Shown here: piece after piece, positions 1-49,850 of the stretch
How the letters are laid out: every line of letters begins with the position of its first letter
Numbering within the stretch: the stretch's first letter is position 1
Translations under genes and position numbers: made by a program
Notes under the pieces: generated by a model
Databases searched by the model: none
What the model was told of the DNA's origin: nothing
Seen by the model: the letters and a program-made list of their open reading frames with translations, nothing else
NCBI RefSeq assembly: GCF_964194155.1
Contig: NC_135885.1
Span: forward strand, 131,502,001-131,566,000
Length of the DNA stretch: 64,000 bases
From: Cetorhinus maximus
Lineage: Eukaryota
Reading direction: 5' to 3'

Positions 1-1462
1 GCTAAATTTGGCATTATTAAGCTCAATCTTGTTCTGAGACTACATCAAAAATTCCGCAGGTATGAGAGGTGGTCCTATAATGGAAAAGAAAATGTGTTAG
101 CTTGGTTGCTATGGAGTCTCCAGTTAATTTCTTCATGCCAGTTTTGAATGTTTGAACCACTCTCTCGGCCAGTCCATTTGATGAGGGGTGGTATGTTTAA
201 GTTTTTACATGAGTGAAAGCACTGAGGCTGATAAACCATTGAAACTCAGCCCTCGTAAATGCCGGGCCATTATCTGATATGACCACTTCTGGTAGTCCGT
301 TGATGGCGAAACTTTGATGTCACTTGTCAATTGTAGCAGATGTTGATGACTTCGCCCCTTATATGTCCATCCATTTTGAGTGAGCATCAACAATAAGGAG
401 AAACATTGTTTCCATAAAAGGTCCCACATAGTAGATATGTAATCACACCCGTGGTCTTCCTGGCCACTCCCAAAGGTGTAATGGAGCTGTTGGAGGTAAC
501 GTTTGCACTTGCTGACACTGCATACAACTTCTCACTAAGCTCTCTATTTCTCTATCCATTCCAGGCCACCATAGGTAGCTGCGTGCTATGGTCTTCATTC
601 GGGAAATACCTGGATGTACACTATGTAGTTCAGTTAGCAATGGCTTTTGTCCTTTTGAAGGAACAATCACTTGAACTCCTCACAATAAGATACCATCCTG
701 GCTGGTTACCTCATGTCTTCTGTGAAAATATGGTTTTATTTCGTCAGATTCCTGCTCTTGTGACCAACCGTGAAGAACTTGTTCTCATACTTTGGGTAAG
801 ACTAGGTCTCGATTTGTTCAACCTCTGATCTGTCTAGCACATACTGATGATGAATCTAAGCAGTTCAATAATAAAATGAGTTCCTGAGGAACTGGAACAT
901 GCTCATCAATTTCGTTCAAAGGCAAACGATTAAGTGCATCAATGTTTGCAATCTGATTTCCAGGCCTGGGGATGAAAGTATATTCATACGCTGCCAGAAT
1001 CAATGTCCACCTCTGTATTCTTGCTGAGGCTATGGGTGGTATAGACTTGTCCTTGTTGAACAATCCTAACAAAGGCATGTGGTCCGAAATGATGACTGTG
1101 TACATATTGCTGAAAGTTCTTGACATCAAAATGATTGACAAGCCTTCTTTTTCTATCTGTGAGAATCCCTTTTCCGCTGTGTTGAGTGTTCTTGATACAT
1201 ACCCATTAGGCCCTTCTGAGCCATCGTCCATTTGATGGGAGAGCACTGCTCCCCCTCCATAAGGAGATGTGTCACTGTCAAAACTAACTTATCTTTGGCC
1301 AAAATGTACTAATAGGGTGGAAGAGTGTAACAGTTGTTTCACTTTTGTGAAAGCTTCTTTTTGTGGTGTTTGCCAAGACCAACATTAGCTTTTCTCGAAT
1401 AAGTAATACAGGGGGTGCCAGTTCTGTCGACAAATTAGGCAAGAAACGTCGATAATAATTGA

Positions 1463-1894
1463 TCATTCCCAAGAATGATTTTGATTTGGAGGTACCTTTG
1501 GTGCTGGTGCCTCTCTAATGGCTCTCACCTTTCCCTCAACTGGGTGGAGGCCCTGTGAATCTACCCTGTGACCTAAATAGACTACCTCTTTTGCTTGGAA
1601 TGTGCACTTTTCTTTTTTTAAACGCACTTCCACCTGTGAGAAATGTTTCAAAACTTCTTCCAAGTCTGCCAAATGCTCCTTTCCAGTGAGTCCTTTCACC
1701 AGAACGTCATCTAAATAAACTACAACGTGAGGCAATCCCTGCAGTAAACTATCCATTGTGCACTGGAATATGGCACAAACTGAGGATACACCAAAAGGCA
1801 AATGGGTATATTGGTACAACCCTTTGTATGTATTAATTGTGACAAATTTCTGAGAGGCCTTCTCTAATTCCAATTGTTGATAAGCATGACTCAT
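1463..1894 (-). pseudogene. Gypsy reverse transcriptase core fragment
   Basis: AYQQLEL...LPFGVSS...VVVYLDDVLV...EKCTF...YLGH motifs. Confidence 0.92.
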
Positions 1895-2322
1895 ATCAAG
1901 CTTCGTGTAGGCGGTTCCACCTGCCAGCTTAGCATACAGGTCTTCAATTTTTGGTATAGGGGCCTGTCCAACTTAGCCACTTTATTAACAGTCAATTTGT
2001 AGTCTCCACAAATTTGAATGCTTTGGCCGAGGTTAAGTACGGGGGCTATTGCCTATTCTGAGAACTGCACAGGTTGTATAACTCCCAGTTTCTCAAATCT
2101 GTCCATTTTGGCGCCTACTTTTTCCCGCATTGTATAAGGTACTAGTCTTGCTTTCATAAATCGGGGATAGCCTCTGGATCCACATGAATTTTTGCTTGTA
2201 GCCCTGGATCTTCTCAAGCTCATCTTGGAAAACTGAGGAATATTTTTGTAGTAGCTCAGGTAGCCACTGGCTCTCAGCTGGAAGATCTCAGCCCAATCCA
2301 ATTTAATTTCTTTCAGCCAGTT

Positions 2323-2628
2323 TCACCCAAGGAGACTTGGCCCCTCACCTGCTACCACCATCAAGGGTAATTTTACTGGTTGACTTCCATACAGTACAGT
2401 AACCCTGCTTGTGCCTTTGATTTTGATGTCTCCTCCAGTGTAAGTTTTCAAGTTGGCATCTGTTTCTTCCAAATTTAATTTACATTCCCCATAACTCAGG
2501 TATTTGAAAGTATGCTCACCTATTGCCGTAGTGGATGCTCCTGTGTCCACCTCCATTCTGATAGGTCTATCATTCACCCTCACGGTTACATAAATTGGTT
2601 CTGTTCTTCCTACTTTTAAATTATACAA
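2323..2628 (-). pseudogene. Gypsy retropepsin-type aspartic protease fragment
   Basis: DTGA catalytic motif and C-terminal SLLG. Confidence 0.88.
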
Positions 2629-3310
2629 TGAATAAATATCTGAATCTGCTATTTCAGGTTCTTAAACATTATGGATCTCATGGGGTTGTTTCTTTTGATT
2701 GAAAGTCTGCCTGATTCTATCCTTGCTACATCCCATGAGGTGTCCATTTCGACATTCAATTTTTAAAAACTTCCATTCATTAGAAGGTTGTCTGCTTCCA
2801 CCTCTGTTACCATTATTCCATGTTTTCACTGCTAAGCTATTTCTTTTTATTTGTCTGCAAACAGTGGCTGTTTTTCACTTCTCATTAGAGCTATGCATTT
2901 TTGCACCCTTTTTGGCTGGGGCTCCCTGCCCAATATGGAGGATGACACCACTTTGTGCTCCCTGTATGGCTTTCGAGTCCCTCAATGCACTTTCCATGTC
3001 CAGTGCTATTTCTAGCACCTTCTGAATATCCAAATTCGTATTTTCATTTATACCGCACACCAAATGACCTCTAAGCATATCGTTTATAGATGTACCAAAC
3101 TCGCAATATTCTGTCAACTGTTTCAGACTTGCCACATAACAAGCAACTGTCTCCCCTGAGTCTCTATCTCTTGAGTTAAATCTGAACCATTGCATTGTTA
3201 ACGAGGGTTTGGGCTGGTAATGACTCTTCACAAGGTTCACTAAGTCATCAAAACTTTTCAAATCCGGGGGACTGGGTGTCATCAAACTTTGAATTCTTAC
3301 TCCCACACAT

Positions 3311-5277: not shown

Positions 5278-7165
5278 AGTTGATGTGGTATACATGGATT
5301 TTCAAAAAACATTTGAGACAGTGCCACACAACAGACTTGTGAGCAAAATTTTAGCTCGTGGAATAAAAGGGAAAGGAGGTACTTGGATAAGAAATTGGCT
5401 GAATGACAGGCAACAGGGGGCAACATTTCCCCCCCATCTTGGGGGACGTGCAGGAGTGGGAGCGGGCGGGTTCCTGATCGGCGCCCCCAGTCGGCGGTGC
5501 GCCGCCATTTTATGTGGGCGGGCCAATTAAAGCCCGCCCAGCGTGACGTCCCCAAGGAAGCGCTATGCGCTCCCTGTGCGGGCGGGGAAGGGGGATTCCC
5601 TGAGCCGGGAGTGTGCTCTAGCGCACAGATCTCCCTGAGCCAAAAGTGCTGCCTCAGGGAGATCGGCTCAGGTTTGAAATATTAAATAAAGATGAGAAAA
5701 AAAATTTTGCTGCCATGTCCCCTCATGTGACACCGTTATATGAGCTGGGACATGTCCATAACTTTAAATATTCTGAAATTTTTAAGTCCCTCATGAAACC
5801 TCATCCCGCCTGTGGATGAGGCTTCATGTCTTTTCTGAAGCCTGCCAGGGCTCCCGGCCTGCCCACCAACCTTAAGGTTGGACAGGCAGGTCCATTAATG
5901 ATTTCAATTACTTTTTTAATGGCCTTAATAGGCCATTGACAGGTCGGCAGGCGTGTAGCCGACATGGCTGCGCGCCCGCTGACCTGAGAATGTAAATGAC
6001 ACGGGGTGACGTTGGGACGCCTGCCTGACATCACCCCCCATTATTTTACATGTCGGCGAGTGGGCCCCACTGCCCCGCTCGCCAACCGGAAGATGCAGCC
6101 CAGGGAGTAGTGATAAATGCTTGTTTTTCATTGGAGGAAGGTTTGTATTGGAATTCCCCAAGTGTTAGTGTTGCAACCCTAGCTCTTCCTGGTATATATT
6201 AATGACCTAGACTGTGGTGTTCAGGGCATGATTTCAAAATTTGCAGATGACATGAAGATTGGAAACATTGTCAACTGTGATGAGGATAGACGTGAACTTC
6301 AAAAAGACATAGACATGTCGGTGGGTTGGGCAGACAAGTGGCAGATGAAGTTCAATGCAAAGAAGTGTGAGGTGATTCATTTTGGCAGGAAGAATATGGA
6401 GAGACAGTATAAAATAAAGGAAGAAACTCTAAAGGAGGGACAGGCACAGAGAACCTCGGTTTACATGTACATAAGTCGCTGAAGCTGGCAGGGCATGTTG
6501 AGAGACCAGTTAACAAAGCATATAGTTGCTTAGGCTATATTAATAGGTGAATTGAGTACTAGAGTAAGAAGGCCATGTTGAATTTGTAAAAGACACTAGT
6601 TAGGCCTCACCTGGAGTACTGTGTCCAGTTCTGGGTGCCATACCTGAGGAAGGATGGGTGGAGGCATTGGAGAGAGTACACAGGAGATTCACAAGAATGA
6701 TTCCAGGGATAAAGAACTGTAGCTATGAGGATAGATTGGAGAGGGTGGGACTGTTTTCCTTGGAGAAAAGAAGGCTGAGAGGAGACGTGGTGGAGGTATT
6801 CAAGATCCTGAGGGGTATGGACAGGGTAAATAGTGAGAAACTGTTTCTACTCAAGAGAGGATCAAGAACTCAAGGGCACAGGTTCAAAATAATTGGCAAA
6901 AGGAGTAATAGTGAGGTGAGGAAAAAATGTTTCACTCAGATGGTGGTTGGAGCCTGGAATGAACTTCCTGAGAGGGTGGTGGAGGTATGTTCGATCAGGG
7001 TATTCAAAAGAAAATTGGATGGCTATCTGAAAGGAAATAATGTGCAAGGTTATGGGGATATGGCGGGGGAGTGGGACTAGGTTGAATGCTCTTCCAGAGA
7101 CCCAGCGCAGACTCAATGGGCCAAATTGCCTCCTTCAGGATTGTAAAGATTCTGTGATTCTGTTC
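5278..7165 (+). mobile_element. CR1 LINE 3' part, interrupted by the MITE at 5418-6101
   Basis: DVVYMDFQKTFETVPH, SKFADD, KWQMKFN and ERVHRRFTRMIPG peptides; tail attctgtgattctgt; the sequence rejoins as caacagggagtag once the MITE is removed. Confidence 0.92.
5418..6101. mobile_element. PIF/Harbinger-type MITE, family A (orientation B)
   Basis: Termini GGGC...GCCC; 3-bp TSD AGG (5415-5417 and 6102-6104); clean insertion into CR1; homologous to five other copies in the window. Confidence 0.88.
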
Positions 7166-23097: not shown

Positions 23098-23470
23098 GTT
23101 TTGCATTTATATAGCACTGTTCACAATCACCAGAGGTTTCATAATGCTGTACAGGCAATAGAGTACTTTTGAAGTGTAATCACTGTTGTAATGTAGGAAA
23201 TGTGGCAGCCAATTTATGCACAGTAAACTCCCATAAACAGCAACATGACAAACCAGGTCATCTGCTTTTGTGATGTTGATTGAGGGATAAATATTGGCCA
23301 GGACACTGGGGTAACTGCTTCTTTGAAATAGGATCATGGGATCTTTTATGTCCGCCTGAGGGGCAGACAGTAGCACAGCTTACCCAAAAGGCGGCACCTG
23401 TAATAGTGCAGCACTCCCTCAGTACTGCACTGGAGTGTCAGCATTGATTTTAGTGCTCAAGCCCTGGTGT
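23098..23470 (-). mobile_element. DeuSINE-type SINE
   Basis: ttgcatttatatagcact...gggataaatattggccaggacac...catgggatcttttatgtcc...gtgcagcactccctcagtactgcac. Confidence 0.85.
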
Positions 23471-23720: not shown

Positions 23721-24741
23721 CTATTCATTTGCTGCTCTGTGCGACCTTGTGTAACTGTCTGTTGTGTTTGCCCACAGCATGACCCTGACTACAGTTCAAG
23801 TTTAATTCATGCAAACATTGTGAGGACATGAAGGTTGTTATATAAGTACAAGCTTGTTCTTTCTTTCAGGATTGCTTTATGATCTATCCAAGCCAGGGCT
23901 GATTTGACCTAATTATTGCTCCAAAACCACTGAGGACTCCATTGTAGCATAGATAAGAAATTATGAAACTTCCTTCAATGAGAGCAGGTGACCTTGCTTA
24001 CCAGTCAGCCCTGTGATGTGAAATCATCCCTCTACAGGTTGGGGGTTTGTGTCACATGAACTAGAAGTGCCGGGCCATTGTGCTCTTTAATGACAGGGAT
24101 AAGAACTCAAACTAATTGCTGCAGTCCTTTAAAACATTCACACTATTTTTCATCTACACAGCCACGCTCTCTAAAAGCCAACTCAGAGTTTTCAGAATGC
24201 ATAGACAGTGGAATTTCAGTTCAGATCAATTCAAATTGGCTCAACTCAGCCTGTCCTTTCCAAGATTTGTTGAAATTAGATCGCTCTGGCTTGGCTTGTC
24301 TGAAACTGGTCTCTCTCCCATTTGAGTGAGCTCCAGTTGGTTTGATTAATTTGCTCGGCTTCATCATTACTGCTCTAGGATTGAAGAAGGGCTTGGCTTG
24401 TGGATCCGTCCCTGGTCAATCCCAAATTCTAATTCCTGTGGGGTGACTGTGCCAGCAACATGCTGAATTTGAAATGTCTTTGCCCTTCATTGATTTTAAA
24501 AGGGAAATACATTAATCCATATTTTTGTTCCAAGGCATTTGCCAACAAAGTTTTTAAGTCAGTCATATGAAATGCATAAGAGTGGCTCAAGGAGACTCAC
24601 CTGATTTGTTTTCCCTTTCTTGCATCTAAGTAGCTTTCACTTCACACATCTCTTCGACTGAGAGATATATTAATTACATATTAATATATTAATGACCACA
24701 GACAGCCATTAAGAGTAGTGTATGAACAGAGAAAGAAGATA

Positions 24742-25135
24742 AAATTGCATTTATGTATTTCCTTCTATGACCCTGTGACAATCCAAAGCTCTTCACAACT
24801 CATGAAGTACAAATGAAATGAATTGTTGTCATGATCGACAGTCAGTTTAGGTACAACAAGGTCCCACAAATAGCAATGAGATTAATGACCAGGTAGCATT
24901 TATTACAGAGAAGTTTTTTTAAGGAATAAATGTTAGCCAAGGCGCCAAGAGGACTCCCCCGTTAAAAATATGAAAATATCATGAGATCTTTTACGTCCTG
25001 AGAGGACTGACTATACCGTGACACCACTGACGCTGCAGCACTCCTTCAGTACTGCACTGAGATGTCAGCCTGCATTATGTGCTCATGACCTGCTGACTAC
25101 AGTTGAGTGTACTATCATTGAGCTACGGCTAGCAC
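24742..25135 (-). mobile_element. DeuSINE-type SINE, degenerate
   Basis: Colinear with the 23098 copy (gatcttttacgtcc; gcagcactccttcagtactgcac). Confidence 0.75.
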
Positions 25136-25324
25136 TAAGCAGAATGGAAGAGACAGGGGACAAGTTAAAATGAAAGACAACAAGAAAGCACATTAGGTTA
25201 TGGTCCCTAATTCCATAGAAACCACCATTCCCACACTATTCTCACTTTTACCTGGATTAGATTTAAGTGCTAGTTTCATATTTATTCATATGAAGGAAAT
25301 TTACCAGACTGAGCAGTCTAGTCG

Positions 25325-25605
25325 ATCCTCTCAGGATGTAAAAGATCTCATGGTATTTTCATATTTTTAACAGGGGAGCCCTCTTGGTGCACTGGCTAAC
25401 ATTTATTCCTTAAAAAAACTTCTCTCTAATAAATGCTACCTGGTCATTAATCTCATTGCTATTTGTGGGACCTTGCTGTATCTAAACTGACTGTCGATCA
25501 TGACAACAATTCATTTCATTTGTACTTCATGAGTTGTGAAGAGCTTTGGATTGTCACAGGGTCATGGAAGGAAATACAAAAATGCAATTGTATCTTCTTT
25601 CTTTG
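25325..25605 (+). mobile_element. DeuSINE-type SINE, 3' half
   Basis: ggatgtaaaagatctcatgg...ttgtgggaccttgctgt...aaatgcaattgtatcttctttctt. Confidence 0.7.
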
Positions 25606-26589
25606 TACACGTGAAAGTTATTGGTTGTACACGTGTGAAAGCTCTGATTCACAATGAATTTGATGACATTGTCAACACCATCAGTCCATACAGGTGCACG
25701 TACATGAGGGAACACTTTGCAGAATACACAGTACGGAAATTCATATCACAATTTGTGTAGCACCTCATCTAGGTATATAGAATTTACAACTTGGAAACAG
25801 GCCATTCATAGTTAGTTAAACACTAATCGTGGAAATGAGTTCTACATTCTCATAACACACTGTGTAAAGGAACCTCTCAATTTCTGTTCTAAAGCTCTGA
25901 CATTTAATCTTCACTGACATAACTAGTAACTTGATTTTTAGAAATGTTACTGCACAACTTGTGCTTTGAAACTGGTTAGGAAGATTCGTAATGTGCAGTA
26001 AAAGTCCTCTCCAACATTGGATATGGAGCCTCGCTGAATTTATCCATTCTTCCTGCTTCTGGCATAGTGGAGCTGCTACAAGGCTACGCAACTATAAAGC
26101 CACCACTTTATAAGGTCCCACTCCAATTGATACAAGTAAATGGGGAGACATGCTGATGAGAGCAGCACTAATGGAAGCATGAGACAGTTTGCATGTGAAC
26201 CTTCAATGTATTGACACATTTCCCTTACTACGATCAGATGTTTTACATGGGTCAAAGTGAGGGATGTTGGTCCTAATTTTAGTCCCAATCAGGCTCAGAT
26301 ACCAAGAGGAGGAACACTTAGTGTTATAATAGAGACAAAATATGTCATAAGTAACACACCTATGTAGTCACGTACAAGATACCTATCGCGATGCCAAGAG
26401 TCTCCCAAGTTACTGAGCTTTTCAAGTTGAGTAACTAGTACACACAGATTTATTCAGAATTATGAAGTTCAGTAAAAGACATTGACAATGGTCACCTAAT
26501 ATAGTGTAACCCTGGCCTCATATGCTCATTGTTAGTGCTAATCGAGTTAACTTGTTTGCTGCATTTGCCATCTAAAACCAATGGTTCAC

Positions 26590-28599: not shown

Positions 28600-31590
28600 A
28601 AGGCTTGCATTTATATAGTGCCTTTCATGACAACCAGACATTTCAAAGTATTTTATCATTGAGCCATAGAACCATAGAAAAATTACAGCACAGAAAGAGG
28701 CCATTCAGCTTGTCATGTCTGCGCTGGCCAGAAAATAAAAAATAAAAAAATTAGCTGCCCATTTTAATCCCACCTTCCAGCACCTCGTCCATAGCCCTGC
28801 AGGTTACAGCACTTCAGGTGCAGATCCAGGTGCCTCTTAAATGAGTTGAGGGTTTCTGCCTCCACCACCAAACCAGGCAGCAAATTCCAAACACCCACCA
28901 CCCTCTGGGTGAAGAGATTTTTCCTCATGTCCCCTCTAATCCTTTTACCAATCACCTTAAATCTATGTCCCCGGTAATTGACCTCTCTGCTAGGGGAAAC
29001 TGGGCATCCCTGTCTACTCTATCCAGACCCCTCATTATCTTTTACACCTCAATCCGGCCTTCCTCAGCCTCCTCTGTTCTAAGGAAAGTAACCCCAGCCT
29101 ATCCAATATTTCCTCATAGCTACAATTTTCAAGCCCTGGCAACATTCATGTAAATCTCCTCTGTACTCTCTCCGGAGCAATTATGTCCTTCCTGTAATGT
29201 GGCGACCAGAACTGTTCACAAAATTCCAGCTCTGGCCTAACCAGTGTTTTATATGGTGCCATTATTACATCACTGCTTTTGTATTCTATACCTCATCCAA
29301 TAAAGGAAAGCATTCCACATGCTTTCTTTACCACCTTACCCACCTGTCCTGACACCTTCATGGACCTGTGGACATGCACTCCAATGTCTCTCACTTCCTC
29401 TGCCCCTCCCAATATCCTCCCATTTGTTGTGCATTCCCTTGCTTTGTTTGCCCTCCCCAAATGCATTACCTCACACTTCTCTGGATTGAATTCCATCTGC
29501 CACTTTTCTGCCCACTCAACCAAACCATCGATATCACTCTGAAGTCCATGGCTATCCTCTTCACTATCGACCACAAGGCCGATTTTTGTGTCATCTGCAA
29601 ATTTCCCAATCATACCAGCCACATTTAAGTCCAAATCATTAATATATATAACAAACAGCAAGGGACCCAACACTAAGCCCTGTGGAACACCACTGGAAAC
29701 AGTTTTCGATTTGCAAAAACATCTATCAATCACTATCCTTTGTTTCCTGTCACTGAGCCAATTTTGAATTCAATTCAAACGTTCCCCTGTATTCCATGGG
29801 CTTTTACTTTTCTGACCAGTTTGCTGTGTGGGACCTTGTCAAATGCCTTACCAAAGTCCATGTAGACAGCATCCATTACACTACCCTCATCAATCCTCCT
29901 TGTTAACGCCTCAAAAAATTCAATTAAATTAGCAAGGCATGATTCCCCTAACAAAACTATGCTGATTATGCATGATTAATCCATTCTAAGTGACAGTTTA
30001 TTGTGTCTCTCAGAATTGATTTTAATAATTTGCCCACCAGAGAAGTCAGACTAACCAGCCTATAATTATTTTGTCTATCCTTCGCACCCTTTTTAAATAA
30101 TGGTACAATGTTCGCAAACCTCCAATCTTCCAGTACCTCGCCTGTATCTAGTGAGGATTGGAGAATGATCCTCTGAGCATCCGTTATTTTACTCTCTGGC
30201 TTCCTTTAACAGCCTGGGATACAACACATCCGGTCGTGGTGACTTATCCACCTTCAAGGCTGCCAGTCTCTCCAGCACACCCCCTCTCACTATGTTTATT
30301 GTATCTGATATTTCACATTCCTCCTCTTTAACTAGAATATCTGCTTCATCCCTCTCCTGAGTGAAGACAGGGACAAAGTACTCATTGAGAACCCTGCCCA
30401 CATCTTCAGCATCAGAGCACAAGTTACCACGTACACCTCTGATCAGCCCTGCCCTTTCCTTTGTTATTCTTTTGCTCTTAATGTACTGATAAAACGTCTT
30501 TGGATTTTCTTTGATTTTACCTGCCAATATTTTTTTATATCCTCTCTTTGCTTTCCTAATTACTTTTTTTACTTCACCCCTGTACTTCCTATACTCCTCT
30601 AGGCTTGCTGCAGTATTAAGCTTTTTGTGACCATCATAAGCTTTCTTTTTCTGCTTTATCTTATCTTTTATGCTTCTATATAACCAGGGGGCTCTGGATT
30701 TGGCACTGCCGTCCTTTTCCTTTGTGGGGACATGTCTACACTGTGCCCGTAAAATCTCGCTTTTGAACGCCTCCCACTGGTCTGTCACTGATTTCCTTTC
30801 AAGTAGCTGTAACTTGAAAGATAACCTCTTAGCTTTGTAAAATTTGTCTTTCCCCAATTTAGAACTTCTATTCCTGTTCTATCTTTATCCTTTTCCATAA
30901 TTATATTAAATCCAACTGCATTATGGTCACTATCTCCAAAATAGTCACCCACTGCTACTTCATCCACTTGCCCAGCTTCACTTCCTAAGACTAAACCTAG
31001 GATTGCACTCCCTCTCATTGAGTTTGTGACGTGCTGGCTAAAAAAGTTCTCTTTAATGTAGTTTGAGAATATTGTGCCCCCTGTGCCTATTACACTGTTT
31101 GCATCCCAGTTGATATTAGGGTAGTTGAAGTCCCCAACTATTATTGCCCTGTGCTTTTTGCACTCAGAAATTTGTCTACATATTTGCCCGACATATTTGC
31201 AGTCAATTTAGTTATTTTGAAGTGTAGTCAGTTTTGCAGTGTAGGAAGCGCAGCAGCCAATTTGCACATAGCAAGCTCCATCAAACAGCAAAGTGATAAT
31301 GACCAGATAATTTGCTTTTGTGATGTTGGTTCAAGGATAAATATTGTGCCGAACACCGTATATAATCCCCCAGCTCTTCTTCAAAGTAGTGTCATGGGAT
31401 CTCTCATGTGTACCTACAGGGCAGACTGGCTCTTGGGGCTTGACATCTCATTCAAAAGATAACACCTCCAACAGTGCAGCACTTCCTCAGGATTGCATTG
31501 GAGTATGAGCATATATTTCTGGGGTAGGATTATGAACCCATGACCTTCTGAGTGAATGGCAAGAGTGGCTGCCAACTGAGTCACAGCTGA
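28600..31590 (-). mobile_element. DeuSINE-type SINE split by a CR1 (SINE parts ~28600-28655 and ~31200-31590)
   Basis: SINE tail cttgcatttatatagtgcctttcatga lies left of the CR1; its continuation ttttgaagtgtagtca...tgaacccatgaccttctgag lies right of it. Confidence 0.78.
28664..31190 (-). mobile_element. CR1 LINE, 2.5 kb of ORF2 (endonuclease end, linker, RT) plus 3' UTR
   Basis: GDFNYPNIN-W, FGDSDHNAV, KENPKTFYQYIK, SGVPQGLVLGPLLF and KFADDTK peptides; (CCATAGAA)n tail; same subfamily as 3457-4336. Confidence 0.95.
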
Positions 31591-32084: not shown

Positions 32085-32449
32085 TATTTTTCTTTCATGG
32101 GATATGAGTGTTGCTGGGAAAGCCAGCATTTGTTGCCCATCACCTAATTGCCTTTGAACTGAACATTTCCGAATTCAGTTAAGAGTCAACCACATTGCTG
32201 TGGGTCCTGAGTCACATGTAGGCCAGACCAGGTAAGGACAGCAGATTTCCCTCCTTAAAGGACATTAGTGAACCAGATGGGTTTTTACAACAATCAAGGA
32301 TAGTTTCATAGTCACCATTGCTGAGACTAGCTTTGTATTCCAGATGTATTAATTGATTTCAAATTCCACCAGCTGCTAAGTCCCCAGAGCATTAGTCTGG
32401 GCCTCTGGATCACTAGTTCAGTGACACTATCGCTGTGCCATCATCTCCC
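32085..32449 (-). mobile_element. tRNA-headed SINE sharing both ends with the single-ORF LINE
   Basis: Reverse complement of the 32924 copy; body matches the LINE 5' UTR (45370-45600) and tail matches the LINE 3' end (42171-42240). Confidence 0.85.
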
Positions 32450-32923: not shown

Positions 32924-33285
32924 GGGGTGATGGTATCATAGTGGTAATATCACTGAGCTAGTAACCCAGAGACCCAGCTAAATACTCTGAGGACATGGAT
33001 TTAAATCCTACCATGGCAGCTAGTGGACTTTGAACTCAATTAAGAAGTATGGCAACCATCACTGATTGTTGTAAGAACCCATTTGGTTCGCTGATATTGT
33101 TTAGGGAAGGAAATCTGCCTTCCTTACCTGGTCTGGCTCCATGTTATTCCAGGCCCACAGCAATATGGTTGGCTCTTAACTGCCTGCTGAAATGATCTTG
33201 CAAACTACTCAGTTCAAGGGCAATTAGGGATTGGCAACAAAGGTTGGCCTTGCCAGTGATGCCCACATCCCATGAAAGAATAGAT
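32924..33285 (+). mobile_element. tRNA-headed SINE sharing both ends with the single-ORF LINE
   Basis: A-box-like tggtatcatagtgg and B-box-like ggatttaaatcc; body matches 46610-46905; tail caagggcaattaggg...cccacatcccatgaaagaata matches 49780-49850. Confidence 0.87.
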
Positions 33286-42170: not shown

Positions 42171-45100
42171 ATTCATTTATGGGGTGTAGGCATCACTGGC
42201 TAGTCCAGCATTTACTGCCCATCCCTAATTGCACTTGAGAAGGTGCTGGTGAGCTGCCTTCTTGAACCACTGCAGTCCACATGGTGTAGGTACACCCACA
42301 GTGCTTTTAGGGAGGGAGTTCCAGGATTTTGACCCAAAGACAGTGAAGTCAGGATGGTGAGTGGCTTTGACGGGAGCTTCTAGGCGGTGGTGTTCCCATG
42401 TATCTGCTGCCCTTGTCCTTCTAGATGGTAGTGGTTGTGGGTTTGGAAGCCAAAGGAGCCTTGGTGAGTTTCTGCAGTGCACATCTTGTAGATGGTACAC
42501 ACTACAACCACTGTGCGTCGGTGGTGGAGGGTGTGAATGTTTGTGGAAGGGGTGCCAATCAAATGGGCTGCTTTTTCCCGGATTGTGTCAAGCTTCTTGA
42601 GTGTTGTTGGAGCTGCACTCATCCAGGCAAGTGGGGAATATTACATTACATTCCTGACTTCTGCATTGTAGGTGGGGGACAGGCTTTGGGGAGTTAGGAG
42701 GCGAGTTACTCACTGCAGAATTCCTAGCCTCTGATCTGCTCTTGTAGCCACAGAATTTATATGTCTAGTCCCGTTCAGCTTCTGGTCAATGGTAACCCCC
42801 AGGATGTTGATAATGGAGGATTCATTCAATGGTGGAATGGCATTGAATGTCAAGGGCCGATGGTTAGATATTCTCTTGTTGAAGATGGTCATTGTCTGGC
42901 ACTTGTGTGGCGTGAATGTCATTTCCGCTTGTCAGCCCAAGCCTGGATATTGTCCAGGACTTGCTGCATTTGGACATGGACTGCTTCAGTATTTGAGGCA
43001 TCACAAATGATGCTGAACGTTGCGCAATCAGCAACGAACATCCCCACTTCTGAACTTATGATGGAAGGAGAGTCATTGATGAAGCAGCTGAAGATGGGCC
43101 TAGGATACTACCTTGAGAAACTCCTGCAGTGATGTTCTGGAACTGAGATGATTGATCTCCAACAACCACAACCACCTCCTTTTGTGCTAAGTATGACTCC
43201 AGCCAGTGGAGAGATTTCCCCCGATTCCCATTGACTCCAGTTTTGCTAGGGCTGCTTGATGCCACACTCGGTCAAATGCGGCCTTGATATCAAGGGCAGT
43301 GTGGTAATCTGAGGTGCAATACAGCTTTAAGAGAAGGTGAGCAGATTGACCACGTGACTGTATTACCCAATTCATGTGTAGTGCGGGCTACAATGTTAAT
43401 CAGTAGTTTAGAGTAGGGTCTGGTTGGAGAAGCACACAATGTGTTAGTTCTCTGTTACTTGTGTTAATAAACAGCATGTGCTTCATCTTATATTGGTCTC
43501 TGCATCTGCAGTATATTGTTTGCCAGCTCAATCACCAATAGATAGGTGTGCAACCGTGTTTGCGAGCAAAGCGACCTGACAGAAGGAACATAACAGGCAG
43601 CCATTCTCACCTCAGGAGTTCAGCTCTTTTGTCCATGCTTGAATCAAGGCTGTAAATAGGTCAGGAGCTGGGTGGCCCTGCCAGAACCCAAACTGAGTGC
43701 CAGGGAACAGGTTATTGCAAAGCAAGTGCTGTTTGATAGCACTATTGATGGCCCCCTCCATCACATTACTGATGAACGAGAGTAGACTGATGGGGCAGTA
43801 ATTGGCCGGGTTGGATTTGTCCTGCTTTTTGTGTACAGGACATACCTGGGCAATTTTCCATATTGCCGGGTAAATGCCAGTGTTTTAGCTGTACATGAAC
43901 AGCTTGGCTAGGGGCGTGACAAGTTCTGGAAGACAAGTTTTCAATGTTATTGCCGGACTATTGTCAGGGCCCATAGTCTTTGCAGTATCCAGTGCCTTCA
44001 ACCGTTTCTTGATATTACTTGGAGTGAATCAAATTAGTTGAAGACTGGCATCTGTGATGCTGGGGACCTCCGGATGAGGCCGAGATGGATCATCCACTCG
44101 GCACTTCTGGCTGAAGATTGTTGCGAATGCTTCAGCCTTATCTTTGGCACTGATGTGCTGGGCTCCTCCATAATTGAAGATGGGGATATTTGTGGAGTCT
44201 CCTCCTCTAGTGAGTTGTTTAATTGTCCACCACCATTCATGACTTCATGTGGCAGGACTGCAGAGCTTAGATCTGATCCGTTGGTTGTGGAATCTCTTAT
44301 ATCTGTCTATTGTTTGCTGCTTATGCTGTTTGGCACGCTAGTAGTCCTGTGTTGTAGCTTCACCAGGTTGACACCTCATTTTTAGGTATGCCTGGTGCTG
44401 TTCCTGACATGTCCTCCTGCATTCTTCATTGAACCAGGGTTGATCCCCTGGCTTGATGGTAATGGTAGAGTGGGGGATATGCTGGGCCGAGGTTACAGAT
44501 TATGGCTGTGTACAATTCTGCTGCTGCTGATGGCCCACAGTGCCTCATGGATACCTAGTCTTGATATGTTTGCAATCTATCCCATTTAGCGCAGTGGTAG
44601 TGCCATATAACACAATGGAGGGTATCCTCATTGTGAAGGCGGGACTTCGTCTCCACAATGACTGTGTGGTGGTCACTCCTACTGATACCGTCATGGACAG
44701 GTGCATCTGCGGCAGGCAGGTTGGTGAGGAAGAGGCCAAGTATGTTTTTCCCTCACCACCTGCCGCAGACCCAGCATAGCAGCTATGTCCTTTAGACTCG
44801 GCCAGCTGGGTCAGTGGTGCTACCGAGCCATTCTAGGTGATGGACACTGAAGTCCCCCACCCAGAGTACATTCTACACCCTTGTCACCCTCAGTGCTTCC
44901 TCCAAGTGGTGTTCAACATGGAGGAGTACTGATTCATCAGCTGAGGGCGGGGCGGGGGTGCGGTATGTGGTAATCAGCAGGAGGTTTCCTTGCCCATGTT
45001 GACCTGATGCCATGAGACTTCATGGGATCTGGAGTCGATATTGCGGGCTCGCAAGCAACAGTCCCTCCTGCCAGTGGGACAGGACATACCCATGGATGGT

Positions 45101-45609
45101 GATGGTGGTGCCTGGGGCATTACCTGTAAGGTATAATTCCGTGAGGATGACTATGTCAGGCTATTGTTTGACTAGTCTGTGAGACAGCTCTCCCAATTTT
45201 GGCACAAGCCCCCAGGTGTTAGTAAGGAGGACCTTGCAAAGGCGAAAGGGCTGGGATTGCCATTTTCATTTCCGGTGCCTGGGCTGATGCCATGTGGTCT
45301 GTCTGGTTTCGTCCCTTTTCACTGACTTTTTAGTGGTTTTATACAACTGATTGGCTTGCTAGGCCATTAGGATTCAACCGCATTAGAGCAGATCTAGAGT
45401 CACAGGCAGGCCAGACCAGGTGAGGATGGCAGGTTTCCTTCCGTAAAAGACATTAGTGAACCAGATGGGTTTTTACGACAATCAATATTGGTTCCATTCA
45501 ACTTTTAATTCCAGGTTTTTATTCTGCCATGATGGGATTCAAACCTGGGTCCCCAGAGCATTACTCTGGGTCTCCGCATTACCAGTCCAGTGGCAACACC
45601 ACCACGCCC
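42171..45609 (-). mobile_element. Near-full-length single-ORF (APE endonuclease + RT) CR1-group LINE with tRNA-like 5' head
   Basis: Reverse complement of 46608-49850; LDIKAAFDRVWH and MSAAPTTLKKLDTI peptides; A/B-box-like head at 45530-45609. Confidence 0.9.
43300..43595 (+). mobile_element. Solo LTR (296 bp)
   Basis: TGT...ACA ends, exact TSD GGCAG (43295-43299 and 43596-43600), internal AATAAA; interrupts the LINE RT. Confidence 0.85.
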
Positions 45610-45709
45610 TGTGGTTTCCTTTATTCTCTTTCCAGACTACCTCTGCTGATGCATGGTTATGGTAGCCTTAAGTGGACAAAATGCACAATGCAGTTTTCAA
45701 TACACTGCA

Positions 45710-45722
45710 TTCCTCCCCTTCT
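45710..45722 (-). other. Polypurine tract of the Gypsy element
   Basis: Reverse complement AGAAGGGGAGGAA immediately precedes the TG of the 3' LTR. Confidence 0.85.
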
Positions 45723-46499
45723 TAGTAAGTGAGAGGCATAACATATTTCAATGGCTTGCTTCAAAATTGTAAACATAAAACTTAAGCGTAACTTCAATTC
45801 AACTTCACCAGTAACACTATTATATAACTTTTGTACTCAGTTAACAATGTACTCAGTCATGTACAATGAGATGAAAGATTTGTTCATCAATTGAAAATAG
45901 TTCACCTCATAAGGTAATCACTTAAGCATGGTGGGCATTTTCTCTCACTATTGAAATATCGACTGAATTCAGGCGGCATCTTTTTTAGCTCCTTCTTCGT
46001 TTGAGACATCAGGATTGGATTCAATGCTTACGAGTTGTGTTTTCAGTGCTTTGAAGAGTGGTGCATTTTGCGAGATGATTTGTGAACCGCGGTTAGCAGG
46101 AGTCATTGATCCTTTTGTAATAGTCACAACAAATGGCTGCATGTCATAAGAGGTTGTTTGCTTTCCAACATGACCATTACATTTCACAGGCACTTTATCT
46201 CCCGGCTTTAGTAGTGTAGCTCGAAATTTCATGTCTTACCCTGTATTTACTTTTATTTGATCCTTCTGTTCTCAATGGTGATCACATGCATGTTGATCAT
46301 TAGCTCTGCGGGATAGCTCAGGGAGATGCACACGCATAGGATGTACAACTATGAATGCAGCTGAAGACATTTCAGCAGTCGGATGCAGAATCATTCTGTA
46401 ATTGCGAAGAAAGCGATACAACTCTTGCTCAATGACTTGCTCTCAGCTGTAACTGTACATACTCAGAACGAAGAAACAGTAAAAACAGGGAAATAAGAA

Positions 46500-46566
46500 T
46501 ACTGGTCTGAACTGGTCTGAACTGGTCTAAAATGGAATACCAGTGAACCATTCACTGGTCTGAACT
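46500..46566. repeat. ACTGGTCTGA short tandem repeat (about three adjacent copies plus one)
   Basis: Directly visible in the filler sequence at the LINE 5' junction. Confidence 0.85.
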
Positions 46567-46607
46567 GTTTTTTCCTTCTGGGATATTACATTCAAAGTAC
46601 ATTACTG

Positions 46608-49600
46608 GTCGCTGGACTAGTAATCCACAGACCCAGGGTAATGCTCTGGGGACCCGGGTTTGAATCCTGTCACGGCAGATGGTGGAATTTGAATTTGAAT
46701 CCAATAAAAATCTGGAACTAAAAATTTTAAGATGATAACCATGAAACCATTGCCGATTGTTGTAAAGACCCATCTGGTTCACTAATGCCCATTAAGGAAG
46801 GAAATCTGCTGTCCTTACTTGGCCTGGTGTACATGTGACTCCAGACCCACAGCAATGCGGTTGACTCTTAAATGCCCTCTGAAATGGCCTGGCAAGCCAC
46901 TCAGTTGGATCAAACCGCTACAAAGTCACAAAAAAGGAATGAAACCGGACGGAGCACCAGGCATCGACCAAGGCACCGGAAAAGACAACGGCAAATTCAG
47001 CCCTGTCGACCCTGCAAAGTCCTGCTTACTAACAGCTGGGGATTAGTGCTAAAACTGGGAGATCTGTCTCACAGACTAGTTAAACAACAGCCTGACATAG
47101 TCATCCTCACGGAATCATACCTTACAGAAAATGTCCCAGACACCACCATCACCATCCCTGGGTATGACCTGCCCCACCGGCAGGACAGATCCAGCAGAGG
47201 TAGCGGCACAGTGGTATACAGTTGGGAGGGACTTGCCCCGGAGTACTTAACATTGACTCCAGACCCATGAGGTCTCATGGTATCAGTTCAAACATGGGAA
47301 AAGAAACTTCCTGCTGCTTACCACGAACTGACCCCCCCCCTCTGCCTCTCAGCTGATGAATCAGTGCTCCTCCATGTTGAACACCACTTGGAGGAAACAC
47401 TGAGGGTGGCTAGGGTGCAGAATCTACTCTGGGTGGGGGAACTTCAATGTCCATCACCAAGAGTGTCTCAGTAGCACCACTACTGACTGAACTGGCCAAG
47501 TCCTAAAGGACATAGCTGCTAGACTGTGTCTGCGGCAGGTGGTGAGAGAACCAACAAGGGGGAAAAACATACTTCACCTCATCCTCACCAACCTGCCTGC
47601 CGCAGATGCAACTGTGCATGAGAGTATTGGTAGGAGTGACCACCACACAGTCATTGTGGAGACGAAGTCCCGCCTTCACTTTGAGGATACCCTCCATCAT
47701 GTTGTGTGGCACTACCACTGTGCTAAATGGGATAGATTTCAAACAGTTCAAGCAACTCAAGACTGGGCTTCCATAAAGCGCTGTGGGCCATCAGCAGCAG
47801 CAGAATTGTACTCAACCATAATCTGTAACCTCGGCCCGGCATATCCCCCACTCTACCATTACCATCAAACCAGGTGATCAATCTTGGTTCAATGAAGAGT
47901 GCAGGAGGGCATGCCAGGAGCAGCACCAGGCAGACCTAAAAATGAGGTGTCAACCTGGTGAAGCTATTACACAGGACTACTTGTGTGCCAAACAGCATAA
48001 CCTGCAAGTGATAGACAGAGCTAAGCAATCCCATAGCCAACGGATCAGATCTAAGATCTGTAGTCCTGCCACATCCAGTCGTGAATGATGGTTGACAATT
48101 AAACAACTCACTGCAGGAGGAGGCTCCACAATTATCCCCATCCTCACTCATGGGGGAGCCCAGTACATCAGTGCAAAAGATAAGGCTGAGACATTTGCTA
48201 CAATCTTCAGCCAGAAGTGCCAACTGGATAATCCATCTCGGCCTCCACCAGAGATCCCCAGCATTACAGATGCCAGTCTCCAGCTAATCGATTCACTCCA
48301 CGTGATATCAAGAGACGGCTGAAGGCATTGGATATTGCAAAGGCTATGGGCCTGACAATATTCTGGCAATAGTACTGAAGACTTGTGCTCCAGAAATTGC
48401 TGCACCCCTAGCCAAGCTGTTCTAGTACAGCTACAACACTGGTATCTGCCTGGCTATGTTTAAAATTGCCCAGTTATGTCCTCTACACAAAATACCCAAC
48501 ATGGCCAATTACTGCCCCATCAGTCTACTCTCGATCATCAGTAAAGTAATGGAGGAGTCATCAACAGTGCTATCAAGCGACACTTGCTTAACAATAATCT
48601 GCTCACTGAAACCCATTTTGAGTTTTGCCAGGGCCACTCAACTCAACTCCTGTCCTAATTACAGCCTTGGTTTAAACATGGACAAAAGAGCTGAACACCA
48701 CAGTTGAGGTGAGAGTGACTGCATTGACATCAAGGCAAGATTTGACTGAGTCTGGCATCAAAGAACCCAGCAAAACTGTGGCCAATGGGAATCAGGGGGA
48801 AAACTCTCTGCTGGTTGGAGTCATACCTAGCACAGAGGAAGATGGTTGTGGTTGTTGGAGGTCAGCCATCTCAGCTCCAGGACATCACTGCAGGAGTTCT
48901 GCAGGGTAGTGTCCTCAGCTCAACCATCTTCAGCTGCTTTATCAATGAGCTTCCTTCCATCATAAGGTCCGAAGTGGGGATATTCGCACAATGTTCAGCA
49001 TTATTCGCGACTCCTCAGATACTGAAGCAGTCCATGTCCAAATGCAGCAAGACCTGGACAATATCCAGGCTTGGGATGACAAGTGGCAAATAATTTTCAC
49101 GTCACACAAGTGCCAGGCAATGACCATCTCCAACAAGAGAGAATCTAACCATCGCTCCTTGATGTTCAATGTTATTATCATCACTGCAACATCCACTATC
49201 AACATCCTGGGTGTTACCATTGACCAGAAACTGAACTGGACTAGCCATATAAATACTGTGACTACAGGAGCAGGTCAGAGCCTAGGAATCCTGCGACGAG
49301 TAACTCACCTCCTGACTCCCCAAAGCCTGTCTACCATCTACAAGGCACAAGTCAGGAATGTGATGGAATCCTCCCCACTTGCCTGGATGAGTGCAGCTCC
49401 AACAACACTTAGGAAGCTTGACACCATCCAGGACAAAGCAGCCCACTTAATTGGCACCACATGCACAAACATTCACTCCCTCCACCACCGATACACAGCA
49501 GCAGCAGCGTGTACCATCTACAAGATGCACTGCAGGAATTTGCCAAGAGTCCTTAGACAGCACCTTCCAAACCTAGGACCGCTACCATCTAGAAGGACAA

Positions 49601-49850
49601 GGGCAGAAGATAGATGGGAACACCACCACTTGGAAGTTCCCCTCAAAGTCACTCACCATCCAGATTTGGGAAACTATCGCCATTCCTTAACTGCTGCTGG
49701 GTCAAATTCCTGGCACTGTGGGTATACCTACACCATATGGACTGCAGCGGTTCAAGAAGGCAGCTCAACACCACCTTCTCAAGGGCAACTAGGGGTGGGC
49801 AATAAATGCTGGTCCAGCCAGTGAAGCCCACATCCCATGAATGAATAAAA
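46608..49850 (+). mobile_element. Near-full-length single-ORF (APE + RT) CR1-group LINE with tRNA-like 5' head
   Basis: PDIVILTESYL, PTRGKNILHLILTN and SDHHTV (APE); GVLQGSVL and KWQIIF (RT); tail catgaatgaataaaa; inserted in the Gypsy integrase. Confidence 0.92.

Follow-up and report, generated by a model that had tools for sequence, protein, structure and literature searches.

In the conventional division, LINEs are coding Pol II units, and SINEs are non-coding Pol III units. The closest described relatives of the element studied here are the Zenon LINEs of the CR1 group. According to the parts of PMC13343379 available, all Zenon elements lack an ORF1 and carry a poly-A tail; its main text mentions neither tRNA nor Pol III, and the word SINE occurs there once, in a reference. 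Lepidopteran Zenon is likewise a single-ORF element of ~3.3 kb that has spawned deletion derivatives made of its 5′ and 3′ ends, several times independently, and the internally deleted derivative Persaeus is described, in the part of the paper available, as having neither tRNA homology nor a Pol III promoter (PMC6740152). CR1-Zenon-like LINEs are also named in a whale-shark preprint, the available portion of which does not give their structure.

Outside the Zenon group, tRNA-like sequence has been noted in the RTE LINEs RTE-1_DAn and relatives, and bipartite SINEs such as Bov-tA are built from the 5′ and 3′ ends of a LINE, like those reported below (Kojima 2018, PMC5786205, in part). These systems differ from the present one in that they belong to the RTE or Vingi clades, it is a non-autonomous derivative that received the head, and Pol II is taken to transcribe the LINE itself; nowhere in the available sections of PMC5786205 is an autonomous LINE claimed to be a Pol III unit. 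The shark SINEs SacSINE1 (Deu) and the MetaSINEs also have tRNA heads, and those of the MetaSINEs resemble tRNA-Thr (PMC5499810, PMC4824008, and PMC7245038, each in part). No report of an autonomous LINE transcribed by Pol III came to light in the open-licence literature, and we found no established precedent for a translated 3.3-kb Pol III transcript. A paper on Vingi may mention Pol III-like heads on Ingi/Vingi elements.

The stretch of DNA analyzed here is 64,000 nt long (referred to as the window) and contains two divergently oriented copies of one element, ~1 kb apart (Table 1). Copies A and B are about 80–82% identical to each other, and each is 85–90% identical to the family majority. 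The APE-RT frames of both copies are broken by stops and frameshifts. Clipping at the 5′ end has left copy B without an A box and copy A short by 11 nt. An earlier note, made from the letters alone, had described a tRNA-like head shared by the two copies, with an A-box-like motif in the minus-strand copy only and a B-box-like motif in both, leading through about 350 bp of UTR into an APE-RT frame with no recognizable ORF1. The head and both motifs were confirmed, and so was the single APE-RT frame with no ORF1 upstream; the length given for the UTR was about right, the frame opening at ~+320 and the endonuclease starting at ~+420. Copy A carries a later insertion of 296 bp, which has an 81% match in another locus (L271:102–372).

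Table 1. Positions in the window of the two element copies, their parts, and two short relatives (element positions, marked +, refer to the family majority)
Feature	Window position	Strand	Basis
Copy A, element +12..2116	45608-43606	-	alignment to family majority
Copy A, element +2126..3283	43300-42171	-	alignment to family majority
Copy A tRNA-Thr-like head (element +12 onward), with A box and B box	45515..45608	-	
Copy A A-box-like motif GGCGTGGTGG (this copy only)	45608-45599	-	
Copy A B-box-like motif GGTTTGAATCC	45545-45535	-	
Copy A leader, with internal deletions; body common to local SINEs	45341..45514	-	
Copy A decayed single APE-RT frame (stops, frameshifts)	42228..45340	-	tblastn
Copy A later 296-bp insertion, solo-LTR-like: TG..CA ends, 5-bp flanking repeat	43300..43595	.	
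Copy A 3′ tail, the last ~69 nt of the element, common to SINEs	42171..42238	-	
Copy B, element +26..3284	46608-49847	+	alignment to family majority
Copy B head, clipped (element +26 onward); B box, no A box	46608..46677	+	
Copy B B-box-like motif GGTTTGAATCC	46657-46667	+	
Copy B leader up to +315, the point at which SINEs jump to the tail	46678..46906	+	
Hairpin in copy B leader, 7-nt loop, mutated in copy B	46879-46904	+	
Copy B decayed single APE-RT frame; Arg-rich N-terminal stretch	46911..49792	+	
Copy B 3′ tail and A-rich end	49780..49850	+	
Short SINE-like relative, element +2..295 joined to +3216..3282	32090..32449	-	
Short SINE-like relative, element +16..315 joined to +3216..3284	32939..33282	+	

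On sequence grounds, copies A and B belong, in decayed form, to the elasmobranch Zenon family of LINEs (CR1 group), which is abundant in sharks and rays. Three motif probes matched Zenon rows in the part of the PMC13343379 supplement available, where the length is given as 3,288 nt compared with 3,284 nt here, and the first 400 nt of the element match the published elasmobranch Zenon consensuses nearly letter for letter (by eye). The consensuses CarCar_Zenon-1, ScyCan_Zenon-1, RhiTyp_Zenon-1, HypSab_Zenon-1, and SquAca_Zenon-1/2/3 from that source represent the same family, with which our element shares the length of ~3.3 kb, the lack of ORF1, and the poly-A end. The head stands at the start of seven of the seven published shark/ray Zenon consensuses, and three hagfish/coelacanth Zenon consensuses lack it (PMC13343379; first 400 nt, by eye). 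The nearest homologues are 43–46% identical. The element departs from a canonical vertebrate CR1 in having no ORF1 and in sharing about 27–33% identity with the CR1 pieces of the window; these other CR1-type LINE fragments, so compared at the protein level, lie at 29200–30200 (−) and 6141–6392 (+).

The earlier note had treated the missing ORF1 as unusual, a premise that does not hold for Zenon, all members of which are reported to lack it in the available part of PMC13343379. Whether the architecture had been described before, a question that it also raised, has a divided answer: the family has been published, as has its lack of ORF1, and the main text of that paper does not mention the tRNA head. 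The head, the T-run depletion, the missing AUG, and the end-to-end relation to SINEs reported below are not described in the literature examined, parts of which were available.

We built a family majority profile from 31 copies, each 91–94% identical to the profile. The profile spans 3,284 nt and comprises a canonical A box at ~+11, a canonical B box at ~+77, a leader of ~230 nt extending to about +325, and one APE-RT frame of 969 codons from +320. The 3′ end is a short A-rich tail, in keeping with the poly-A tail of Zenon elements. Pfam searches with natural open stretches of other copies identified the APE (PF14529, E = 8.6e-12) and RT (PF00078, E = 2.1e-33) domains. No intact copy was seen among those scored by protein query, the longest open frame being 751 aa.

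The tRNA-derived 5′ head with its A and B boxes corresponds to a Pol III type-2 arrangement. It aligns to a host tRNA-Thr(AGT) gene (L389), except for an extra hairpin of ~20 nt in the variable loop. ARAGORN called tRNA-Thr(agt) in one of five copies without the extra hairpin and no tRNA in the window, and Rfam found no tRNA and no IRES family in 8 full-length copies. The missed tRNA calls are probably explained by the extra hairpin, which would hide the tRNA fold. Short deletions between micro-repeats recur in the head and leader of many copies, some removing the extra hairpin and others the B box.

A query covering the head and the start of the frame returned 11,443 first-look candidates, and the 40 that were scored were nearly all full-span; such a query selects for the joint. 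For an unbiased test, copies were selected by the endonuclease alone, using a DNA query and a protein query, which together gave 68 non-self copies. The head was reached in 40 of them, and the other 28 end inside the head or leader region. With the DNA query (39 non-self hits), 20 copies run past the B box into the more 5′ part of the head, 1 goes no further than the B box, 7 end in the leader, and 11 end at +328 to +400. With the protein query, 20 of the best 29 non-self copies among 114 scored reach the head (1 doubtful), whereas 6 end at +92 to +255 and 3 at +344 to +424. Similarity among 31 copies begins sharply at +1, and an all-against-all comparison of the 500-nt upstream flanks revealed scattered other repeats only and no common extension. 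No longer, ORF1-bearing form was found among the endonuclease-selected copies. The leader also continues into the frame in contigs of four other organisms (these assembled contigs have no bearing on transcription starts or on expression), and the same +1 boundary and +315 SINE junction are present in contigs of two of the four.

Together, these data show that the family truly begins with the head, at a fixed 5′ end, and that the head is no chance neighbor. The earlier note had argued against a chance SINE neighbor from the two copies of the window, and the fixed junction, the proportion of copies that reach the head, and the unrelated flanks support its argument. It had also suggested looking for target-site duplications outside the head. 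This gave no signal: none was found in 14 full-length copies, which are about 7% diverged (mean best match of 2.9 versus 2.6 nt, permutation p = 0.255). A reading in which the joints are one-off chimeras, as in U6-L1, or SINEs lying beside truncated LINEs, with no master element behind them, could draw on the great abundance of the SINE and on copy L075, in which the other head variant is combined with a disturbed middle. We consider it highly improbable, because one fixed junction refutes it, 40 of the 68 unbiased copies reach the head and no alternative upstream sequence occurs among them, and the same joint is found in consensuses from five species.

Five of the 39 copies (L064, L071, L073, L085, and L098) are truncated in an A-run at +338 to +343 and have unrelated flanks. 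The possibility that they represent a head-less subfamily was rejected because of these unrelated flanks; the A-run is likely to be a truncation hotspot.

Short elements, both local and elsewhere in the genome, consist of the first 292 or 315 nt of the LINE joined to its last 69 nt (+3216 onward). They are abundant, with 6,727 and 8,496 first-look candidates. These derivatives of 360–385 nt are short and non-coding, as expected of SINE2 elements, in contrast to the LINE with its 3.3 kb and 969-codon frame. Two head variants were distinguished: exact pattern searches gave 48 hits for the longer, on LINEs, and 11 for the shorter, on SINEs joined at +315. When 20 longer-head hits were examined, 16 ran well into the frame, 3 jumped to the 3′ end elsewhere, and 1 ended at +415. 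Both variants occur across LINEs and SINEs, indicating that the head is shared through more than one subfamily; the second head subfamily was revealed by a gapped pattern search and not by using L075 as the query.

The SINEs match the 5′ part of the LINE right up to the point at which their tail starts. Internal deletion is therefore the simpler account of how they arose, and the local ones are likely explained by a single internal deletion of the LINE. Unlike Persaeus as described in the available part of PMC6740152, the resulting derivative is a tRNA-headed SINE in structure. Its body differs from those of SacSINE1 and the MetaSINEs, in the published material available, in having no Deu, Meta, or UCON3 sequence (by eye, for these domains only). 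Identity of the body with SacSINE1/Deu and with MetaSINE was in each case rejected by eye on the published domain sequences. One-off internal deletions were also seen in LINE copies L244, L246, and L253, in which about +364 to +385 is joined to +3111 to +3139.

The reverse order of events is that an older tRNA-headed SINE gave its head and body to the Zenon LINE by template switching, so that the SINEs would not be deletion products. Hagfish, coelacanth, and lepidopteran Zenon lack the head and body, which were hence acquired (PMC6740152 and PMC13343379, in part), and template switching and module exchange among SINEs have been described (PMC4824008, in part). We nevertheless regard this order as rather unlikely. 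A deletion directly accounts for the similarity ending exactly at +315/+3216, whereas capture would require a coincidence; besides this junction there are a second one (+292) and the one-off deletions; and internally deleted derivatives of Zenon elements are already on record (PMC6740152, in part). The question concerns the origin of the SINEs, and a SINE-first history would be compatible with transcription by either polymerase.

Turning to the LINE itself, we asked how its sequence stands with respect to Pol III terminators. The sense strand of the majority profile contains no T4 run in 3,284 nt, compared with 14 A4 runs. The probability of finding no T4 was 0.012 under a base shuffle, 0.004 under a codon model, and 0.078 under a synonymous shuffle, and a dinucleotide model predicts 1.6 T4 runs in this T-poor (20%) element. 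Taken alone, the absence of T4 is suggestive and is weak under the strictest nulls. The frame contains 4 TTT runs, compared with 12.7 ± 2.5 expected under synonymous shuffles (z = −3.3). T4 is absent from four natural open stretches of the family, which total 4,566 nt, and individual old copies have a mean of 1.3 T4 each.

As controls, three CR1 frames from the same genome (21–26% T) have 6–7 T4 each, as expected, and a fourth control frame of this genome (L061) has none, like the element, with 1.5 expected. We further compared 80 metagenome loci of distant relatives, in which no tRNA and no matching head were found. A frame of at least 500 codons was present in 49 of these loci, and T4 occurred in all 49 (2.3–16.7 per kb); most of these frames are T-richer than the element, and their most extreme T3 z value, −3.2, is close to that of the element. 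Phenylalanine makes up 1.86% of the encoded protein, compared with a mean of 4.1 ± 1.0% and a minimum of 2.3% in 50 homologues of 900–1,200 aa.

These values bear on whether a captured head could accompany transcription by Pol II, with the head and leader serving as an internal Pol II promoter or with read-through from the flank. The scarcity of T-runs would then reflect an A/C-rich composition or the avoidance of splice or termination signals. LINE RNAs are normally capped Pol II transcripts (Kojima 2018, discussion, PMC5786205, in part). Pol II would solve the problem of the cap, and both the lack of significance of the T4 count under the strictest nulls and the control frame without T4 are in agreement with it. 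Against this stand the seven consensuses in which canonical A and B boxes lie precisely at the 5′ end, the TTT depletion in excess of codon usage together with the low phenylalanine content, an AATAAA at +115, and the deletion derivatives, which work as SINEs with the same head; moreover, a capped RNA would still offer no usable AUG 5′ of the endonuclease. On balance, we judge transcription by Pol II to be unlikely.

RNA made by Pol III is uncapped, and the family majority has no in-frame AUG 5′ of the endonuclease. The first in-frame Met is located ~280 residues into the frame, and translation from an in-frame ATG at +293 would meet a stop two codons further on. A hairpin folds at +288 to +313, and its 7-nt anticodon-like loop is complementary to an in-frame GCTA at +326. 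The GCTA is kept in seven of seven published shark/ray consensuses amid variable neighbors, and the loop is deleted in one (by eye); the hairpin is lost from one SINE type. A point against a role for this pairing is the spiny-dogfish Zenon-2 consensus, in which a downstream ATG is in frame instead (by eye). The GCTA is in frame with the endonuclease in 45 of 72 copies, and a homologue (P0032) has a similar Arg-rich stretch before the endonuclease. Translation would most likely start at a non-AUG codon near +326, and the start might possibly be set by pairing of the anticodon-like loop of the hairpin with GCTA. Such an arrangement would resemble the dicistrovirus intergenic IRES, in which a non-AUG start is set by a mimic of the tRNA anticodon–codon interaction; the available part of the same paper speculates on IGR-IRES-like elements in non-LTR retrotransposons (PMC3894237). 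The element differs from that IRES in having only a hairpin with a possible 4-bp loop–codon pairing, and no Rfam IRES match.

We observed a fixed 5′ head, one frame without ORF1, a depletion of T-runs, and SINEs that represent the two ends of the LINE. Our preferred reading, to which we assign a probability of roughly 60%, is that elasmobranch Zenon is an autonomous LINE with a tRNA-Thr-derived head and a TTTT-free frame that would be transcribed end to end by Pol III. TFIIIC would bind the A and B boxes of the head, and Pol III would read the 3.3 kb until a T-run in the flanking DNA ends transcription. Lacking a cap, the RNA would have to be translated by a cap-independent route; the APE-RT would then attach to the 3′ tail and use target-primed reverse transcription to copy the RNA. 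A complete SINE would arise from an element of this kind by one internal deletion. The earlier note had proposed either the capture of a SINE/tRNA promoter by an autonomous LINE or Pol III transcription of an ORF1-less LINE, and had suggested that a consensus be checked for TTTT terminators. The fixed head, the lack of ORF1, and the sense strand free of T4 agree with this proposal, whereas Pol III transcription itself is still a prediction.

A more far-reaching version, which we put forward tentatively and consider possible rather than probable, is that elasmobranch Zenon makes an uncapped 3.3-kb Pol III RNA that would be translated without an AUG via a tRNA-mimicking IRES. The element would then combine LINE and SINE, would have been maintained in sharks and rays, and would shed complete SINEs by single deletions. 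If true, an abundant vertebrate LINE would be a natural Pol III messenger RNA, and a single construct could test both uncapped, AUG-less translation and the origin of SINE bodies. According to the available part of Kojima 2018 (PMC5786205), the source of conserved SINE bodies had not been found; the element would offer a one-step route from LINE to SINE.

Finally, we noted several other features in the same material. The predicted shark proteins P0012, P0013, P0015, P0018, and P0024 carry pieces that are 55–76% identical to the RT of the LINE, and these are probably gene-model artefacts or products of exonization. Pieces of another SINE are located at 23152–23449 and 31200–31517 of the window, and part of this SINE resembles, on the minus strand, a published Deu-type SINE sequence (by eye). 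An inverted repeat at 24723–25609 of the window has arms of 294 nt that are 94% complementary and are separated by 299 nt.
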